The translations under genes and the position numbers were made by a program. A DNA stretch of 53,542 nucleotides, from NCBI GenBank assembly GCA_021399395.1, contig JAAFKJ010000079.1, positions 1 to 53,542 of the forward strand, given 5' to 3'. This document shows positions 42,502 to 49,878 of the stretch, piece by piece; position 1 is the first letter of the stretch; each line of letters starts with the position of its first letter. A model generated the notes under the pieces. That model did not search any database and was not told the DNA's origin. It worked only from the letters and a program-made list of their open reading frames with translations. The DNA comes from Candidatus Heimdallarchaeota archaeon. GTDB lineage: Archaea > Asgardarchaeota > Heimdallarchaeia > Heimdallarchaeales > Heimdallarchaeaceae.

Positions 42502-43245
42502 TTAAACAAACATTCCCTCATCTGAATCCTTCTCAGAATCTTTTCTGGATCTGCTTGCTTGCAGAAGAGATTCAATTTCCTTTTCTATCTTTTGTGCCTC
42601 ATCAAGCAACTCTTGAACATTGACATCAATATCTAGAATTTTGTTGATTTCTTTTACTGCAATACTTGCTGCAACAGGGTCTGGTCTTGATCTTTCTGCA
42701 TATGGTAAAAGCGCTATTGCCTCAAAATCATTCAATTCATAGAACATTAACATATAGGCTAAAGGACCTGTAACATATAATCCTTCATCAAGAAAGGGTA
42801 TTTCTACATCAGTTCTATTTTCTCTAAAGGCTTGTGTATATATTGCCTTAATCTCCGCTTCATCTTGCAAACGTCTGTCCAATCCACCGATTAGGACGGC
42901 TTGCTTGAATTTTTGGTCTATTGACCATTGAACAACAGACTTTGTAAATATTAGATGTTCAGATTTAATAGGTTCGAAAATCGGTAAAATAACCACCATA
43001 TCATCTCTTCTATAAATTTCAAATGGAAATGTTATTTTGTTGTTCTTTATTGTTATAAATTGTGGAATGTTGCTTGTAATAATGTAACCTATTCTTTCTG
43101 CACCCAATTTGTCTACAAGATGACTCATTGAGATAAAACCACATTCACCAATTCCATGCCAACCATTAAGTAATGTACAACCTTCAAAGTTTTGGGGCTC
43201 CTTAAAAACAAACTCTAGGTCCCCATAAAGATTCTTGTCTTTCAT
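42502..43245 (-). CDS. PAC2-family proteasome assembly chaperone (PbaA/PbaB-like)
   Basis: GWHGIGECG, FPFEIY, IGGL, TGPLAY and PDPVAA motifs. Confidence 0.9.
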   Translation of the reverse strand: MKDKNLYGDLEFVFKEPQNFEGCTLLNGWHGIGECGFISMSHLVDKLGAERIGYIITSNIPQFITIKNNKITFPFEIYRRDDMVVILPIFEPIKSEHLIFTKSVVQWSIDQKFKQAVLIGGLDRRLQDEAEIKAIYTQAFRENRTDVEIPFLDEGLYVTGPLAYMLMFYELNDFEAIALLPYAERSRPDPVAASIAVKEINKILDIDVNVQELLDEAQKIEKEIESLLQASRSRKDSEKDSDEGMFV

Positions 43246-43323
43246 AATTATCTCCTTGATGTAAAATTCCTAACTTGCTTTATAATGACTGACTTACCAT
43301 CTTCATATTAAACTTATGTATAA

Positions 43324-43345
43324 TCTGTTTAAAGTCTGTTTAAAG
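43324..43345 (+). repeat. Tandem 11-bp direct repeat upstream of tnpB
   Basis: TCTGTTTAAAG at 43324-43334 and again at 43335-43345. Confidence 0.7.
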
Positions 43346-43402
43346 GAATAGTGAAAAGAGATATTACGGGGGCTTTTATAGGAAAACCAGAGAAAATTAC
43401 TG

Positions 43403-44677
43403 ATGATAACATCGTTGAGAATAGAGTGCATAGAATTAACCTATACTCCAGCTTTAAGCAAGCTTTGTCATCACGTTAAGAATCTCTACAACCGAGCGAA
43501 TTTTCTGATAAAATCTTCACTCAACAAACAGAACAAGGTGTTAAGTTATTATGAACTGAATAGCTTACTGAGATCTGAAGAATGTTACAGAGTACTACCT
43601 GCTCATACTGCCCAACATACTCTCAAACTCCTATGCAGAAATTGGAAGGCATTTTTTCAAGCTCAAGAGGAGTTTAAGAAGTACCCAGACAAATTCTATT
43701 CTAACCCAAAACCTCCTAAATACAAACCTAAGAAGGGAGAAGGAGTGGCGATTATATCAAACCAGCAAGCAAAGATAAGAAATGGGTGGGTAGTCCTTCC
43801 CAAGAAAGTAGGGTTCTACTACAAAAAACGACTAACTAAGCGTATTGTTTTGAAAGAAGCAAGAATCGTTCCTAGAAACGTAGGTTACACCTTAGAACTT
43901 GTTTATGCGAAAATCCTTCCAAAACGGAGGAAGAAGAACACTAGAAAGGGAGCTATTGATTTAGGATCTGTCAACCTCATGACCTTCGTAGATAACCTCG
44001 GGAATCAGCCGATTGTTGTCAAGGACCACGGCAAAGGTATCAAAAGTATTATCCAGTATTATATGAAAAAACAAACTCAGTTAAGAGCAAGGTATGTCCA
44101 ACAGCAAAAAAAGAATTTGAAGCAACAACAGAAATTGGTTTATGGGAAGGGCTACTATAAACTTAGTGAGCGGTACCGTAAGAAACTCAAGAACGCTATT
44201 CATCATCTTACCAAATATTTAGTAGACTTGTTCGTCGAACGAGACTTACATGAAGTAGTTATAGGTTACAACCCCAAGTGGAAACAACACGTAAGATTGG
44301 GGAAGAAGAACACACAGATGTTTGTTACTATTCCCTTTCTTAAAATTATCAATCAATTGAAGTATAAAGCTGAAGAACAAGGGATTGATGTAGAGACTAT
44401 ACCTGAGAACTATACATCTAAGAGTAGTTTTCTTGATAATGAAATGTCACAAAAACGAGACAAATATATTGGTAAACGCTCCTCTCGAGGATTGTTCACT
44501 TCTGCTCAAGGACACAAGATCAATGCAGATGTGAATGCAGCATATAATATCTTAATCAAAAGCGATCCGAAAGCCATACCTAAGCGTACGGTGAACGGGG
44601 TAGGAGGGTACGTGATGTACCCACGTAGGGTGTGTGTGGACCCACCAAGAATGATATGCACATCGACTATGAAATAG
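43403..44677 (+). mobile_element. tnpB: TnpB RNA-guided nuclease of an IS200/IS605/IS607-related element, with no tnpA in the window
   Basis: KNLYNRAN, AIDLGSVN (RuvC I), QLKYKAEEQGI, ENYTSK and INADVNAAYNI (RuvC III). Confidence 0.92.
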
Positions 44678-44760
44678 GCTCAACTATGTTCGGCTAAGAT
44701 GCCAGTATGACAAAAACACATCATAATGACTAATTTTTGTACACTTTGAATCAAATATAC
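44580..44760 (+). ncRNA. Putative omegaRNA/right-end region of the TnpB element
   Basis: GC-rich segment overlapping the tnpB 3' end, with hairpin GGGTAC-GTGAT-GTACCC. The position is as expected for TnpB omegaRNAs; boundaries are uncertain. Confidence 0.45.
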
Positions 44761-44818
44761 GTCCTATTATTTGGAAAAATAAGACGAAATTTTTCCTCCA
44801 GCTTGGTTTCCAAACTAA
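44752..44818 (+). pseudogene. Degenerate copy of the PPAW micropeptide gene
   Basis: CAAATATACGTCC...GAC GAA ATT TTT CCT CCA GCT TGG TTT CCA AAC TAA reads QIY/.../DEIFPPAWFPN*, with a frame offset and an in-frame TAA. A T-tract follows. Confidence 0.55.
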
Positions 44819-44920
44819 ATCTACTCTTTTTCTTTTTTCTTTCTTGTCACATTCTTTCTTGAGGTGTTTTAATAGTTTCCTTGCACTATTAAGGTAACCC
44901 TTTCCTACGAGTGATTTATA

Positions 44921-44989
44921 ATGTATAACAAAATATACGACCCTGATGAAGGTGACGATGGTATCCTCCCCCCAGCTTGGCTCCCTTAG
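44921..44989 (+). CDS. 22-aa micropeptide MYNKIYDPDEGDDGILPPAWLP
   Basis: The ATG is preceded by SD-like GAGTGA with a 6-nt spacer and the ORF is followed by a pyrimidine/T tract. The C-terminal half is conserved in the adjacent degenerate copy. Confidence 0.6.
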   Translation: MYNKIYDPDEGDDGILPPAWLP

Positions 44990-45113
44990 TAAAAGAGAGC
45001 TATCTTCTTCTTTATTTTTCTTCCAATTCTAAACTAGATATTTCCCTAGTTTATATATGAAAGTAAGCATTATAGTTTGAATAAATCTCTAAGATTTATC
45101 AAGGCTGAGTTAT

Positions 45114-46694
45114 ATGAGACCAATAGAGATAAGGAAGAAACTATCTGTTTTAAATTCCAAAGATGAATTGAGAGAAATAATATCTCAGTTAAAAATTGTT
45201 GCTTCAAATAGAAGATCTGATGAAAATATAATCCATATAATCGAAGACAGTATTGGTGTAGCAACAGAGATTAAGGATTTTGAATCTCTAGTCATTCTAA
45301 AAGGTCTTCTAATCCTTCAATACATTCAACAATCGACTAATATGGAAAAATCTATCCGAATTCTTGAGAAAATGCAATCTTTAGCAACTAAAATAGATTA
45401 TAAAGAAGGATTAGCGTTTTCCTTTTCTTTTGCTTGGTATATAGCACGAATTAGAGGAAATAAAGAAGAGAGAAGAGAGTCTATTATTAGTGCTGTAACG
45501 TTATTAGATGAAGTTAACCAACCAAATCAGTTTATCTACTATTTTGTAAAGTACACTCAAGCATTAGAAATGTGGTTTGTATCAAGAGATATTAGATGTG
45601 TAGACATCTTAGAAAATTGTATTGTCTATTTTTCTGAAAAAAGACTTTACCATAGTCTCGTAATGTCACTTGGTATTCTAAGCTTGATTTTTCAGCAAAC
45701 TCAAAACAAAGAGAAAGCTATAAATTTAACAAAAACAATTCTTATGAGAAGAAACTTTCTTAATCAAGTACCTGAGGAAATCAGATCTAATATTCACTTC
45801 TTTATTGGTTTTAGTCAAGAATTATCATTTAGCCTCAATGTGGCAGAGAAGCATCTAAAGGAAGCAATAAGGATACTACAACCTATCTATGAAACCAGTA
45901 TTTACTCCAGTTACTATTTGACTGCTCTTTCCTATCTTACTGCAACCTATGCACTTCAAGGAAAGCTAGAATTAGCTTACAATCAGATAATAGAAGTAGA
46001 TGAACTGATAGAAGAAGGAATAGCAACAAGAAATCTAGATGACTTTAATAGAGGGCAGATGAAACATATCTTTGACTTAACAAAATTCTATATCCTTTCA
46101 AGATTACGAAATTTTGCACCCAAAAATTTGTATGAATTAAAACAAAAAATCCTTGAGAATATAAGCAAATATTATAGCAACGCAATCTTTTTCAGTGAAT
46201 TTCTCTTAAATGCTGAATTAACAAAAGAGCAACTTATAGAAATAAAGGATTTAAAAACCCCAAGTACTAAGAGGATTGAGCACATACTTAATTTCCTAAT
46301 AGAAAGAGCTATTATAACTAATGAGCAAGATTTAATAAATTCAATTTTTGAATTGAAGAGAAGACCTGCGAAAAAGCGAATGACTTATGAGGAAAAAGCT
46401 TTTGCTGATTTGTTAGCTGCACAGGAATATTACAAAATCAGACGCTTCTCCGAAATCTATCCTCTTCTCAAGAAGTATAAAAATAATCTAAATCGAATTG
46501 AGGTGCTTGAACTCCGTATCTTTATGGAAGCATTTATCCAAATTAGTGCCTTCAAGAACGGTGATCCTATGGGACTTGCTTTACAATATGTGGCTATCAG
46601 AAAATGCCAACAGTATGGTTTCAGTGGGTTAGAAAACAAATTGTTAAGCTACTTAGAACTTCAACGCAAGGATGTTGTTAAAGCTTTATTCTAA
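45114..46694 (+). CDS. TPR-like all-helical protein
   Basis: Repeated TPR-like helix pairs, e.g. LNVAEKHLKEAIRIL and LTATYALQGKLELAYNQI. No signal peptide or catalytic motif recognised. Confidence 0.75.
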   Translation: MRPIEIRKKLSVLNSKDELREIISQLKIVASNRRSDENIIHIIEDSIGVATEIKDFESLVILKGLLILQYIQQSTNMEKSIRILEKMQSLATKIDYKEGLAFSFSFAWYIARIRGNKEERRESIISAVTLLDEVNQPNQFIYYFVKYTQALEMWFVSRDIRCVDILENCIVYFSEKRLYHSLVMSLGILSLIFQQTQNKEKAINLTKTILMRRNFLNQVPEEIRSNIHFFIGFSQELSFSLNVAEKHLKEAIRILQPIYETSIYSSYYLTALSYLTATYALQGKLELAYNQIIEVDELIEEGIATRNLDDFNRGQMKHIFDLTKFYILSRLRNFAPKNLYELKQKILENISKYYSNAIFFSEFLLNAELTKEQLIEIKDLKTPSTKRIEHILNFLIERAIITNEQDLINSIFELKRRPAKKRMTYEEKAFADLLAAQEYYKIRRFSEIYPLLKKYKNNLNRIEVLELRIFMEAFIQISAFKNGDPMGLALQYVAIRKCQQYGFSGLENKLLSYLELQRKDVVKALF

Positions 46695-46753
46695 ACCAAG
46701 AGACAACAAGATGAATTTCTGCTCTTACAGCGAAGCGAGAACAATAGATTTCC

Positions 46754-46788
46754 ATCTTACCACTTAATCAAAAATTACGTGGTAAGAT
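46754..46788. repeat. Perfect 10-bp inverted repeat with 15-nt spacer, same arms as 15709-15752
   Basis: ATCTTACCAC (46754-46763) and GTGGTAAGAT (46779-46788). Confidence 0.88.
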
Positions 46789-46927
46789 AAATTTTCGAGA
46801 AATTTGTGTACTGCAAAATCTGAATCATAAAATTCATTTTATCAGACTAATTATGCATAACATATATAGTGATTTGCGCTTAGAAAAATCTCGAATAAAA
46901 ATAAAAAAAGAAATAAAGTGGGTAAAA

Positions 46928-47662
46928 CTACTTTTTACCTCTTCTTCTACCACTTCTTCTAGCCGCAATCAAACCAACCTTTCTACCAGGTTGTGCATGC
47001 CTTGATACTGTTGTTGATCTTGGAGGACCTTGATGTGCACCACCACCATGTGGATGGGAAACCGCATTCATCGCTACACCTCTAACCTTTGGATAGTAAT
47101 GTCCTTTGGCTTTCTTTAGATGGAATTTATTACCAGCCTTTACAAAAGGCTTTTCTGTTCTTCCACCACCAGCAACAATACCAATAGTTGCCCTACATCT
47201 TTGTGGAATTTCTTTCATTTCTCCACTTGGAAGCTGTAGAGTAACTTTTCCTTTGTCTCTACCAAGAATTGTTGCATATCCGCCACTAGAGCGTATTAAT
47301 CTTCCTCCATCTCCGGGTGTTAATTCTATGTTAAAAACAGGAGAACCATCTGGAATTGATTGTAAAGGCATGGTGTTACCTAATTGAACTGCTGCTGTAG
47401 CGCCATATTCAACTTTTTGCCCTACTCGCAAGCCTTCTGAAGGTAGAATAATTTTCTTAAGACCATCTTCAAATAAGACTCGAGCTACAGGAGCACCTCT
47501 ACCGGGATCGTGTACTAAATCTCTAATTTCACCTGTAATGGTTCCTGTATATTCCAGCTTCGCTAGTTTTCTATATTTAACACTACCTTTTTTCTTGTGT
47601 GAAGCGGCTCTAAATTGTGAAGTTCCTCTTCCGCGTCTTTGAACTAATATCTTCTTACCCAT
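46928..47662 (-). CDS. rpl2: 50S ribosomal protein L2 (uL2)
   Basis: HDPGRGAP and VRGVAMNAVSHPHGGG motifs. Confidence 0.99.
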   Translation of the reverse strand: MGKKILVQRRGRGTSQFRAASHKKKGSVKYRKLAKLEYTGTITGEIRDLVHDPGRGAPVARVLFEDGLKKIILPSEGLRVGQKVEYGATAAVQLGNTMPLQSIPDGSPVFNIELTPGDGGRLIRSSGGYATILGRDKGKVTLQLPSGEMKEIPQRCRATIGIVAGGGRTEKPFVKAGNKFHLKKAKGHYYPKVRGVAMNAVSHPHGGGAHQGPPRSTTVSRHAQPGRKVGLIAARRSGRRRGKK

Positions 47663-47676
47663 TCATATCACCTTCT

Positions 47677-47937
47677 TTAGAACAAGCCCATCCTTGATGC
47701 AATATCTGCTGCATCATCAAAATCACTAAGTCGCACGTATGCTTTCTTAGTTCCTTTTGGAGTTATCAGAGTATTAACACTATCAACTTTAACGCTGTAA
47801 AGTTTCTCTATTGCTTCTTTGATTTGCTGCTTAGTTGCTTTGAGATCGACTAATATTACAAGTTTATTTTCCTGTTCTATTAACTCAAAATCTTTTTCAG
47901 ATATGAGAGGTTTCTTGATTATTTTATATGGATCCAT
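47677..47937 (-). CDS. rpl23: 50S ribosomal protein L23 (uL23)
   Basis: VNTLITPKGTKKAYVRL motif. Confidence 0.98.
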   Translation of the reverse strand: MDPYKIIKKPLISEKDFELIEQENKLVILVDLKATKQQIKEAIEKLYSVKVDSVNTLITPKGTKKAYVRLSDFDDAADIASRMGLF

Positions 47938-47944
47938 TTTTTAT

Positions 47945-48736
47945 TCACCCAAAACGTTCAGTTAGAGATTGTATCGCATCCTCTGTCCAGATAGTAAGTC
48001 TGCCTGGATAAGTTCCTGGTGCTAAAATCTCGGTAGTAAGCTCATTGATTGTTATAACTTCTGTACCTAGAATGTTCCTTCCTGCTTTAATTAGGGAGCT
48101 TTCTTTATCCTTTACTACAATTAAAGGTCCTACTGGAACTTTGTATTTGCGTCCCCTCATTTTACCTTTGCCTGCACGAACTTTCTTACCTATTTTTATT
48201 CGCATAAGTTCTAAAGATAGTCCTAGATTGTTTAGCAATTGGATAGCATCACTAGTTTTTTCAATGGTTTCAGCTTTAGATTCAATGATAATTGGAAACT
48301 CCATTTTACTCTCAAATCTATGTCCTCTGTCACTTACGGCATCTTTCTTAGATGTATAAGCAATTGCAGATTTTAAAGCGAGTAAATGTTCCTTTCTGTT
48401 AATCTTCTCTATTATGTTCTTCTCAGCTGTTGGTGGATGTGCTTTGTGACCACCTCTAGCTTGTGGAATGAACGCTGTTCTTTGAGCACTGTGTGTTCGA
48501 GATCCCTTTATACGAGGAACACGTGCTACACCTCTACCAGTACCCCAATTTTCAACAGCAACCATTTTACCTGCTAATGGACTTACGCCTTTTGGTTGTC
48601 TCTTCCAACTTTGTTCAGCAAGAACAGCCCTCTTAATAACATCAGGACGCAAGGTTGATTCGAAAACATTTGGAAGTTCAACTTTTTCACTCATTTTTTG
48701 TCCTTTGATTGAGTATTTTGTTACATTCATTTTCAT
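47945..48736 (-). CDS. rpl4: 50S ribosomal protein L4 (uL4)
   Basis: WGTGRGVARVPR, RAGKGKMRGR and LAPGTYPGRLTIW motifs. Confidence 0.98.
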   Translation of the reverse strand: MKMNVTKYSIKGQKMSEKVELPNVFESTLRPDVIKRAVLAEQSWKRQPKGVSPLAGKMVAVENWGTGRGVARVPRIKGSRTHSAQRTAFIPQARGGHKAHPPTAEKNIIEKINRKEHLLALKSAIAYTSKKDAVSDRGHRFESKMEFPIIIESKAETIEKTSDAIQLLNNLGLSLELMRIKIGKKVRAGKGKMRGRKYKVPVGPLIVVKDKESSLIKAGRNILGTEVITINELTTEILAPGTYPGRLTIWTEDAIQSLTERFG

Positions 48737-48746
48737 CTACCTCTTT

Positions 48747-49748
48747 CTAACCTTGCTGACTCTTCGTTGAGATGAAGAGAATTTGTGGCTCTTTTATCGC
48801 TTGAGGAACTTGTCTAACAGGTCCTCTTAGCATGACTGTTCGCTTTTTGGATCCTGGAATTGATCCTTTAACCAACAGATAGTTATTTTTCACTATACCA
48901 TATTTTACAAAACCACCTTTAGGAACAATTTGTGCTCCATCTGAACCAATTTGCATAATCCTTTTATTATAATCTGTTCGCATATGGAAACCCATTTGAC
49001 CATATCTTGGTATGGTCCACATAGTTCTTGCAGGAGTCCATGGTCCTATAGAACCTACTCCTCGTTTAGTTCCTTTAGATTTGTGTTGGAGAATTTTAAC
49101 TCCATGTCTTTTAACTGGTCCTTGGAAACCTTTACCTTTGGTTACACCCATTGCATCAACAAATTCTCCTGCTTTGAAAACATCTCTTATCAACAGTTCT
49201 TTACCTAATAGAGAAAGACCATATTCATATCCTTCTTTAATAGAGTTACAGCCGATTTTGATTTCAGCAATTTGAGGTGTCTTCATCCCAATCCCAGTTA
49301 AATATGGTTGTGTATGAACAACAGCTCTGAGTTCCACAATAGCTTCAAGATTATCGTCAAATTTCTTTTTAGATTTCTTAAAGTCATAGTTCTTTGGAAG
49401 CTTAATCTTTCTTTTGAGTTCTTCTTTAGTTTCAGATGCCATAAGATCTGCTGCAATCTGAAGCCCATAAGCTGTTTTCTTGTAACCTCTTAGACTAAAT
49501 ATAACTATTGGAGGTGTTTCAATACAAGTTACAGCTGTAGTAACCTCTCTATTCGCCAAGTGACTCCTTGGTCGATCCTCAATGTACGCACAGTGTGTCA
49601 TCCCTGCTTTTATTCCCAGAAATCCTAACAATTTCGGAGCACCCTCGTATTGTTGCCAATCGCGAGGTGCGGGGACGATCCTTCTTGCTCTTACCCTTCG
49701 GTATCCGAGTGATGACCGATGGGGAGCACTGACCCTTCGATGCCCCAT
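48747..49748 (-). CDS. rpl3: 50S ribosomal protein L3 (uL3)
   Basis: KAGMTH, TKGKGFQGPVKR and GQMGFHMRTDYNKR motifs. Confidence 0.98.
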   Translation of the reverse strand: MGHRRVSAPHRSSLGYRRVRARRIVPAPRDWQQYEGAPKLLGFLGIKAGMTHCAYIEDRPRSHLANREVTTAVTCIETPPIVIFSLRGYKKTAYGLQIAADLMASETKEELKRKIKLPKNYDFKKSKKKFDDNLEAIVELRAVVHTQPYLTGIGMKTPQIAEIKIGCNSIKEGYEYGLSLLGKELLIRDVFKAGEFVDAMGVTKGKGFQGPVKRHGVKILQHKSKGTKRGVGSIGPWTPARTMWTIPRYGQMGFHMRTDYNKRIMQIGSDGAQIVPKGGFVKYGIVKNNYLLVKGSIPGSKKRTVMLRGPVRQVPQAIKEPQILFISTKSQQG

Positions 49749-49878
49749 AAACATCACATTTGTTTATTTTAGTTTATTATGACACTTTTATACATATGTC
49801 GTACTTCGGCACAGGTAGCATCATATAAATATGTCGTTAAGAAAGAACTTCAGACAAAATTACCCATTAAAAGTAGTT

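Follow-up and report, generated by a model that had tools for sequence, protein, structure and literature searches.

The stretch of DNA analysed here, the 53,542-nucleotide (nt) contig JAAFKJ010000079.1 of a Candidatus Heimdallarchaeota archaeon (family Heimdallarchaeaceae), is contig C170 of a genome of 2.8 Mb with 34% G+C and 81.8% completeness (G000), and is referred to below as the window. On its plus strand it carries a 22-codon open reading frame (ORF) followed by the gene of a 526-residue protein with the predicted fold of a tetratricopeptide repeat (TPR) solenoid. The two genes are treated here as a candidate peptide-receptor module, and the large protein is called the receptor for brevity. 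The features of the module are as follows.

44844..44898, plus strand: promoter-like linear motif (TTGTCA..TTTCTTTCTTG..GTGTTTTAATAG..TAAC), conserved in 113 units of the genus and in a 44-unit alignment.
44909..44915, plus strand: Shine-Dalgarno-like GAGTGAT, located 5-6 nt ahead of the start codon; of the upstream columns, those of (G)AGTGAT rank with the best conserved.
44921..44989, plus strand: micropeptide gene of 22 codons and a stop, MYNKIYDPDEGDDGILPPAWLP, identified by seven intact genome paralogues and by codon-position entropy.
45003..45024, plus strand: T-rich tract after the peptide stop, with T5 at 45015-45019; T5+ runs recur across units.
45050..45058, plus strand: TATA-box-like TTTATATAT, 56 nt before the receptor ATG, from reading of the sequence.
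45114..46694, plus strand: receptor gene, next co-oriented gene, encoding 526 residues predicted to form an all-alpha TPR-like solenoid (structure model and structure search).
45114..45518, plus strand: receptor residues 1-135, the first seven helices, a variable module that tracks the W-x-P (plus extension) end of the peptide.
45567..46466, plus strand: receptor residues 152-451, central TPR-like repeats, of which 152-251 track peptide position -1 and 232-451 track position -4 and the block -7 to -4.
46467..46694, plus strand: receptor residues 452-526 and the stop, the most conserved and most basic part by identity and net charge, with no covariation.

This layout agrees with the initial annotation of the locus, made from the sequence alone, which had described the 22-codon ORF with its GAGTGA (placed here at 44909-44914, 6 nt before the ATG), the T-rich tract behind it and, as the next co-oriented gene, a TPR-like solenoid of 526 residues.

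The micro-ORF was found to belong to a gene family. When the 2.8-Mb genome was scanned in six frames with the motif DP..G[DE]-x3-6-PP.W, seven matches were detected, far above chance, and all seven were intact family ORFs of ~22 codons with products of the form M-x3-4-YDP-[DE][DE]-GD-x4-PP-x-W-x-P. An additional 101 distinct peptide sequences came from loci of 22 further genomes in the genus, and overall 113 distinct peptide genes were counted in 23 genomes, with the common core [YF]-D-P-x2-G-D-x4-P-P-x-W-x-P. Across 95 non-identical units of canonical spacing, the core showed a mean entropy of 0.52, 0.50 and 1.39 bits at the first, second and third codon position, respectively, and third positions of the invariant D, G, D, P and P had 0.9-1.85 bits. 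This codon-position periodicity implies purifying selection on the peptide sequence, and by this comparison the micro-ORF is under selection at the amino-acid level, as had been suspected from the differences between two copies in the window. A non-coding repeat or structured RNA, with conservation at the nucleotide level alone, was considered and rejected, based on the periodicity, on RNAalifold analysis of 44 units, in which no conserved structure was detected (-0.38 kcal/mol, two trivial invariant pairs, no covarying pair), and on an Rfam scan of positions 43000-47000, in which just two sub-threshold chance matches were found.

By the start-codon rule of this analysis, the 113 peptides are 18 to 32 residues in length with a mode of 22. 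Their mean net charge is -3.7, and none has a signal sequence or hydrophobic N-terminus, in agreement with the initial annotation, which had noted the lack of a hydrophobic signal sequence. About 17 residues are conserved and span nearly the whole product. In the sister genus g10 the whole product is 18-23 residues long and starts with M-[FY]-D-P or, in one gene, MSRKLFDP; since these products begin almost at the core, nearly the whole peptide appears to be the conserved functional unit, with no residue surplus for a pro-region. The stop codon directly follows the final Pro in 51 of the 95 units, the others being extended, mostly by one residue (N in 27, G in 8). None of four peptides tested had a match in a collection of 15 billion proteins, which indicates that gene callers miss the peptide genes. 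At one locus (L051, G009:C23), upstream of the receptor gene at oriented position 1372, two peptides were observed in which Tyr replaces the otherwise invariant Trp; their ends, …LLPPLYFPN and …LTPPMYFPN, retain an aromatic residue, and the remaining core is intact.

The units share a layout that begins ~100 nt before the ATG: TTGTCA-N-TTTCTTTCTTG-N4-GTGTTTTA(A/G)TAG, followed by TAAC and then by (G)AGTGAT-N5-ATG. This linear motif is kept genus-wide while synonymous sites are saturated. A position weight matrix of the motif scored 57.2 bits at 44844-44898 and gave seven matches above 18 bits in the whole genome, all seven at live or decayed peptide genes; by this regulon search, no sites were found in the genome apart from peptide genes and their remnants. 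We read the motif as a putative operator/TATA element and initiator region combined with a Shine-Dalgarno sequence. In 98 of 113 units a T5+ run lies no more than 50 nt past the stop codon, compared to 55 of 113 in an upstream control window, and the T-rich tract is likely an archaeal transcription stop. The block GTTTATA(T/A)ATGAAAGT is common to the modules of the window and of contigs C9 and C126, and the receptor gene would have a separate promoter.

The AlphaFold2 (AF2) model of the receptor, built from a 25-row alignment, is all-helical with 28 helices, a predicted local distance difference test score (pLDDT) of 89.3 and a predicted template modelling score (pTM) of 0.87; a loop at residues 133-138 follows the first seven helices. 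The best Foldseek matches were TPR solenoids (E 3e-5 to 3e-3, template modelling score 0.24-0.53, identity 10-15%), including the TSK-H3.1 tail, SRP68/72 PBD, LGN-Inscuteable/NuMA and MalT domain III, with structures 7t7t, 3sf4 and 5a7d among them; several are complexes with a peptide or partner according to their entry titles. By its modelled fold the receptor can be placed in the TPR superfamily (a tandem helix-turn-helix superhelix); the likeness between these structures and the model appears generic, and we do not claim homology to the matched proteins. No Pfam family was above threshold (best TPR_MalT, E=0.066) and no helix-turn-helix (HTH) family was matched, no match was found in NCBIfam, PADLOC or PHROGs, and a profile search of PDB sequences returned nothing better than a designed protein at E=0.008. 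A few relatives of the receptor carry PF13424, PF13374 or PF17874 in precomputed annotation, and the ESM Atlas was uninformative on function (recognition 1994, below 2300). Neither an enzymatic nor a DNA-binding domain was detected by Pfam, NCBIfam, the AF2 model or Foldseek. The sequence has no N-terminal hydrophobic or transmembrane segment, and the protein is predicted to be cytoplasmic. Residues 452-526 have a mean pairwise identity of 71%, compared to 34-45% elsewhere, and a net charge of +4.1 over 75 residues.

Peptide and receptor genes were found to be paired. All seven intact peptide genes of this genome are co-oriented with, and at most ~270 nt upstream of, five receptor genes, two of which have two peptide genes each; the five receptor paralogues are 489-535 residues in length and share 33-57% identity with the window protein. 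Among fetched loci, which partly overlap, 92 of 113 receptor matches have one to three co-oriented upstream peptide genes, and in sister genus g10 the count is six of six; the short PPxW-like ORFs that the initial annotation had envisaged upstream of homologous Asgard TPR genes are therefore common. Most of the remaining receptor matches are cut by the locus end or belong to divergent subfamilies. One of these, of ~550-570 residues and of the single-copy L048 type (L048, L088-L094), has no PPxW peptide ORF at these loci, and at least at L048 and L089-L091 its gene is flanked by genes for a beta-CASP/metallo-beta-lactamase and a UDP-glucose dehydrogenase; the subfamily may represent an ancestral peptide-less form or use another ligand. 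A PPxW peptide ORF was also not found at L065 and L080, two of the three members of a second low-scoring type, nor at two copies in genome G052 (L111, L112); the third member of the second type, L055, has the peptide MYDPEPGDEDTLPPHWFP 159 nt upstream.

The family is restricted to one archaeal family. Among 41 relatives (this genome included) it was detected in 24 genomes, with 23 of 24 in the genus and none of 16 in three other families of the order. In a survey of 400 genomes of the phylum, it was present in 26 of 30 Heimdallarchaeaceae (genus g1, 23/24; g10, 2/2; g11, 1/1; g12, 0/1; g13, 0/2) and, outside that family, in one of 369 genomes, by a single weak match (E=1.4e-7). A profile search of 1.84 billion representative proteins returned 119 with E<=1e-3, 47 of them with E<=1e-30. 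Relatives that carry a name are annotated as hypothetical or as 'TPR repeat' proteins and come from Heimdallarchaeaceae or from other Asgard archaea. A single genome can have as many as 12 receptor matches, and tandem arrays are frequent.

The two products were also found to covary. For 67 non-identical receptors, each paired with its proximal peptide, identity at single peptide positions was compared to identity in 40-residue receptor windows. On the tree of the whole protein, peptide types follow receptor clades; co-duplication alone would give such agreement, and for this reason receptor regions were tested separately. By this approach, peptide position +1 (between W and P) and the C-terminal extension were found to track receptor residues 12-131, with peak r of 0.43 and 0.38, respectively, at residues 32-71 and correlations of at most 0.1 beyond residue 170. 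Position -1 (between PP and W) tracked residues 152-251 (r 0.43) and position -4 tracked residues 232-451 (r 0.39), and no variable peptide position peaked at residues 452-526, where r was at most 0.19 (position -1). In Mantel permutations using the maximum over windows, 0 of 500 permutations reached the observed value for positions -7, -6, -4, -1, +1 and the extension, and 18 of 500 did so for position -5; the sequences are kin (paralogues and orthologues), so these counts overstate significance and are not to be read as probabilities. The resulting map is, on sequence grounds, colinear and antiparallel.

Parsimony (Fitch) counts gave a similar picture. The W-x-P plus extension label (17 states) required 19 changes on the tree of receptor residues 12-136, where the minimum is 16 and shuffled labels gave 47.9 on average, and 39 changes on the tree of residues 152-441. 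Conversely, for the block -7 to -4 (25 states) the central tree required 32 changes, compared to a minimum of 24 and an average of 53.5 after shuffling, and the N-terminal tree required 43. The N-terminal tree clusters 13 of 14 WFPN receptors and seven of eight WWP receptors, regardless of central type. As a control, we used the 23 receptors with two peptide genes, the second lying ~170-470 nt, mostly ~170-230 nt, further upstream. The proximal label required 11 changes on a minimum of 10, with 0 of 1000 shuffles as good, whereas the second peptide required 14 (minimum 10, shuffled mean 15.6), with 120 of 1000 shuffles as good; in none of the 23 cases did the proximal and second peptides have the same signature. 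These distal peptides may serve receptors encoded elsewhere or survive from lost modules. TPN-type and LP-type endings were seen to recur among the distal peptides of two- and three-gene loci (e.g., L046, L054, L058 and L063).

When the receptor (alignment A2) and the peptide (A3) were co-folded, the outcome lent weak support to binding. The median interface score (ipSAE) was 0.32 (runs of 0.32, 0.05 and 0.40), compared to 0.00 for the best of three controls, with contact agreement between runs of at least 41% and a partner pLDDT of at least 38. In the calibration, 58 of 80 solved complexes and two of 110 mismatched pairs reached the mark; just seven of the 80 solved complexes, and both passing mismatches, reached it with a value of 0.60 or under, and the calibration set had no chain under 30 residues.

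Taken together, we consider it probable (roughly 65%), from comparative evidence, that the product of the 22-codon ORF and the downstream TPR solenoid form a cognate binding pair of ligand and receptor, an idea already raised in the initial annotation and now favoured by the region-specific covariation of 67 pairs and by the distal-peptide control. We infer from the sequence patterns the physical contact, its orientation, the docking site at the receptor C-terminus and the cellular output outlined in the following scheme. The 22-codon ORF would be a separate gene, expressed from its own promoter, for a small acidic peptide, which would run along the concave groove of the TPR superhelix in extended form and antiparallel orientation. 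Its hypervariable C-terminus (W-x-P and the optional extra residue) would face the variable N-terminal repeats at residues ~1-135, and the residue before the Trp together with the block before the Pro-Pro would face the central repeats at residues ~150-450. The invariant acidic N-terminal half (YDPxxGD) is placed, by elimination and because this part of the receptor is the most conserved and most basic, against the invariant repeats at residues ~452-526; alternatively, residues 452-526 may bind a common partner. As enzymatic and DNA-binding domains are both absent from the receptor, the role of the peptide would most likely be to switch the binding of the receptor to a third partner, by analogy with the action of Phr on Rap. 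The default site of action would be inside the producing cell, as the peptides have no export signal and almost no dispensable residues, with release and re-uptake as an alternative. Duplication of the module into arrays, followed by combinatorial diversification, would have generated many peptide-receptor specificities in the Heimdallarchaeaceae.

Several points weigh against this interpretation. The receptor has no output domain; no RNA run was listed for positions 44700-46700, the runs listed being six DNA runs from two studies, two of them possibly the source; and the covarying columns are assigned to the groove by sequence correlation, not by coordinates. Within genomes, pairs of identical signature numbered 13 of 331, compared to 11.7 expected from shuffling, so no insulation signal was detected. 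Moreover, the 3' end of the peptide gene, the spacer and the 5' end of the receptor gene are contiguous DNA, so repeated exchange of a tract that spans the peptide C-terminus, the spacer and the receptor N-terminus could produce some of the covariation even in the absence of selection for binding. Linkage as the sole cause is disfavoured by three observations: the block -7 to -4 lies ~12 nt from the +1 codon and yet follows the distant central region; this block needs at least 19 extra changes on the N-terminal tree, compared to 3 for the W-x-P label across ~300 nt; and the distal-peptide control does not track the receptor.

The remaining features upstream of the module concern its history and include a transposon-type gene.

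43403..44677, plus strand: tnpB, encoding an IS200/605-type OrfB/TnpB protein of 424 residues (Pfam Cas12f1-like_TNB, E=3.3e-12; OrfB_IS605, E=2.3e-8).
44678..44724, plus strand: 47-nt conserved 3' flank of the tnpB element, found at eight more genome sites with 78-91% identity and E<=5e-5.
44752..44818, plus strand: decayed distal peptide gene of WFPN type (...DEIFPPAWFPN*), aligned with the intact copy and two C126 copies.

The initial annotation had proposed tandem 'PPAW' cassettes. The second copy is indeed present at 44752-44818, with the described Pro-codon differences (CCT/CCC, CCA/CCT) and F/L substitutions, but it is a decayed remnant, which leaves one live gene. It has no start codon, contains an in-frame TAA, has no promoter-like motif (the weight matrix found no match upstream) and can be aligned to the intact copy from AAATATACG onward; it was also found as repeat D1/D3. 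The 47-nt flank is probably the transposon (right) end or an omega-RNA region. Since the decayed copy starts ~27 nt 3' of this flank, which recurs with the tnpB element, the tnpB insertion is probably incidental, outside the peptide/TPR module, and probably cut off the distal peptide gene. Assignment of the peptide unit to the tnpB element was rejected, as the sequence that recurs together with the insertion sequence is limited to the 47 nt behind tnpB. The peptide unit recurs beside receptor genes independently of that element.

Two further decayed copies were detected in the genome. An orphan peptide gene at C21:26086-26230 (L025:787-931) retains an intact promoter-like motif and carries a TGG to TGA change and a DP to DS change; it has no receptor, the next gene being the 3' part of a large-subunit rRNA gene on the opposite strand, and its state fits decay after loss of the partner. 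At C6:1200-1324 on the minus strand (L021), the seventh promoter-motif match, 3' of the C6 receptor gene, precedes a decayed peptide remnant (...LDPAECDDFYITSKV...), which on this sequence evidence is a relic of a further module. Directly 3' of the receptor gene, the minus strand of the window at 46928-49757 presumably carries a ribosomal-protein operon (uL2, uL23, uL4 and uL3, from ORF translations), and the module lies in a core chromosomal context with no obvious mobile island.

Among known systems, the module appears to follow the logic of the RRNPP family without being a member. It shares with RRNPP systems a cytoplasmic TPR-type receptor, an adjacent peptide gene and covarying specificity residues. 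Membership, which the initial annotation had raised by comparison, is disfavoured because there is no homology, no HTH or other output domain and no export signal with processing. Homology to Rap, NprR, PlcR, PrgX, AimR or Rgg was not detected by Pfam, NCBIfam or profile search of PDB sequences, and no RRNPP chain was among the Foldseek matches listed for the receptor. RRNPP receptors have as output domain an N-terminal HTH (PlcR, PrgX, Rgg, AimR and NprR) or a Rap-type N-terminal helical bundle that acts on a response regulator; here no HTH was found, and the first 135 residues are seven TPR-like helices. RRNPP pro-peptides are cut to 5-10 residues, compared to the 18-32-residue peptides described here. 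In most RRNPP cassettes, the gene order differs from the arrangement seen here, in which the peptide gene comes first and has its own promoter-like motif.

The closest likenesses are to systems of Bacillus and streptococci. Rap-Phr pairs are found in Bacillus, its phages and plasmids. The streptococcal Rgg-SHP and ComR-ComS (XIP) systems have peptide genes of ~17-25 codons, usually unannotated, beside a TPR-type receptor, and they resemble the module in this arrangement and in the lack of a classical Sec signal peptide; in ComS/XIP, specificity comes from an aromatic, Trp-containing C-terminus. Unlike the receptor studied here, Rgg and ComR carry an N-terminal HTH and are transcription factors, and unlike the acidic peptides of the module, which are conserved over nearly their full length, SHPs are hydrophobic, exported by a dedicated transporter and cut to ~8 residues (Rgg-SHP and ComR-ComS comparison, PMC13361665, in part). 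Rap-Phr, the RRNPP branch without HTH, is similar in pairing a short encoded peptide with a TPR protein that is all-helical, cytoplasmic and devoid of a DNA-binding domain, in the many paralogous pairs per genome with diversifying specificity residues, and in a peptide expected to switch binding of a third protein (PMC3601992, in part). By contrast to Rap-Phr, the module has an Asgard archaeal host, no detectable sequence homology, a peptide gene that is upstream with its own promoter-like motif instead of downstream, no signal or pro-region, ~17 conserved residues instead of 5-6, and a receptor of ~525 residues with a mosaic specificity code in its N-terminal and central regions. A further likeness is to eukaryotic TPR proteins that recognize short linear motifs, such as kinesin light chain (W-acidic/Y-acidic), LGN-Inscuteable/NuMA and TSK-H3.1, where an acidic Tyr/Trp peptide runs along a concave groove as proposed here; in these cases the ligand is a motif inside a cargo or adaptor, whereas here it is a free-standing gene product, and the resemblance would be one of analogy, not homology (PMC6214655 and PMC13078783, each in part).

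Given these likenesses, RRNPP-style quorum sensing was considered, in which the peptide would be released, accumulate with cell density, be re-imported by an Opp-type transporter and bind the cytoplasmic TPR protein, with the variants acting as pherotypes. The gene logic is alike, including the many pairs and covarying specificity residues, and the genome encodes at least ten Opp/Dpp-type binding proteins (SBP_bac_5) above the Pfam cut-off, a family that is not peptide-specific; Opp-type transporters are also common in peptide-fermenting archaea, which makes their presence unspecific. A 603-residue protein with a C-terminal FtsX-type permease domain is encoded in or beside arrays at five loci (L067:8475-11166, L075:3257-5933, L035, L061 and L064), and an ABC ATPase gene family occurs in four, adjoining the permease gene in L067, the one array checked; the two may form an ABC transporter and candidate exporter, at a minority of modules only. 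Bacterial precedent exists for dozens of pairs per genome, as one Paenibacillus genome has more than 25 distinct peptide-receptor pairs that arose by duplication and diversification (PMC7425212, in part); unlike that expansion, which is bacterial, of secreted-peptide and RRNPP type, the present one is archaeal and non-homologous. Against release and re-import stand the absence of a signal sequence or hydrophobic N-terminus, the acidic charge, the g10 products of 18-23 residues that leave no room for a pro-region, the lack of a conserved exporter or processing protease beside most modules, and signatures that are not kept distinct within genomes. We regard quorum sensing as unlikely.

We view with still greater doubt a conflict or addiction pair, in which the peptide would be the labile antidote of a harmful or defensive TPR protein in an arms race with viruses or mobile elements. 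Such a pair could explain the lineage restriction, the multiple copies in tandem arrays, the frequent pseudogenes, the mosaic reassortment and the specific peptide-protein binding that the covariation suggests. Yet the TPR protein has no toxic or enzymatic domain and no match to PADLOC defence models or PHROGs, the adjoining tnpB appears to be an incidental insertion, and the genes that recur beside the modules, at syntenic sites, have housekeeping roles (pyrophosphatase, Orc1/Cdc6, RNA polymerase subunit D, M42 peptidase and PEPCK) and are not defence islands.

A cis-acting leader peptide, whose nascent PP-x-W-x-P-stop would stall the ribosome and control read-through into the TPR gene, is highly improbable. 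TnaC is an example of such an arrest peptide; Pro-Pro and a Pro near the stop are typical of the class, and the ORF is co-oriented and upstream of the receptor gene with a T-tract in between. Yet the module appears to lack the features of the class, a single upstream ORF and an RNA structure: there are up to three peptide genes per receptor, most aligned units have their own promoter-like motif, and no conserved structure that could act as terminator or antiterminator was detected by RNAalifold. In addition, the stop directly follows the final Pro in little more than half of the units, and the residues differ among paralogues of one genome despite the same ribosome and covary with receptor regions, which is unexpected for a ribosome-directed peptide. 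Least credible of all is the RiPP-like (ribosomally synthesized and post-translationally modified peptide) or peptide-modifying reading offered in the initial annotation, in which the peptide would be modified, e.g., at Trp, to yield a natural product and the TPR protein would serve as a scaffold or in recognition: several precursor-like genes before one large gene, a few hypervariable positions and an invariant Trp, as in prenylated ComX, would suit it, but conservation extends over almost the whole product with no leader/core division, just six of the 113 peptides contain Cys, conserved Ser or Thr residues are absent, the large gene encodes a plain TPR solenoid, and no radical-SAM enzyme, cyclase, prenyltransferase, dedicated protease or maturase recurs in the neighbourhoods.

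To our knowledge, no genetically encoded peptide ligand-receptor system has been described in Archaea. A literature search at the level of abstracts revealed no published description of a peptide-TPR system of this kind, and in PMC12700828 the word 'archaea' occurs in the reference list only. The micropeptide-TPR module appears to be lineage-specific and previously undescribed; it has a modular specificity code and was found in one Asgard family. As the peptide genes are invisible to gene callers, dozens of them per genome would be missing from annotations. The colinear, modular covariation predicts which receptor segment reads which peptide residue, and the receptors could constitute a natural set of orthogonal peptide-binding TPR modules as well as a prokaryotic model of how TPR proteins recognize acidic Tyr/Trp motifs, a type of recognition that is common in eukaryotic cell biology. 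We give even odds to the broader proposal that a combinatorial peptide-TPR code operates in the Heimdallarchaeaceae, archaea closely related to eukaryotes, in which free-standing acidic peptides of ~20 residues are read along a TPR superhelix by exchangeable receptor modules, the W-x-P end by the N-terminal module and the middle by the central one. In that case, release of the peptides from the cell would make the system the first of its kind in Archaea, a genetically encoded peptide pheromone with its receptor; peptides retained inside would represent a new class of intracellular micropeptide switches that resemble eukaryotic TPR/short-linear-motif recognition. As either intracellular switches or the first archaeal peptide pheromones, the peptides of this family would be categorically new.

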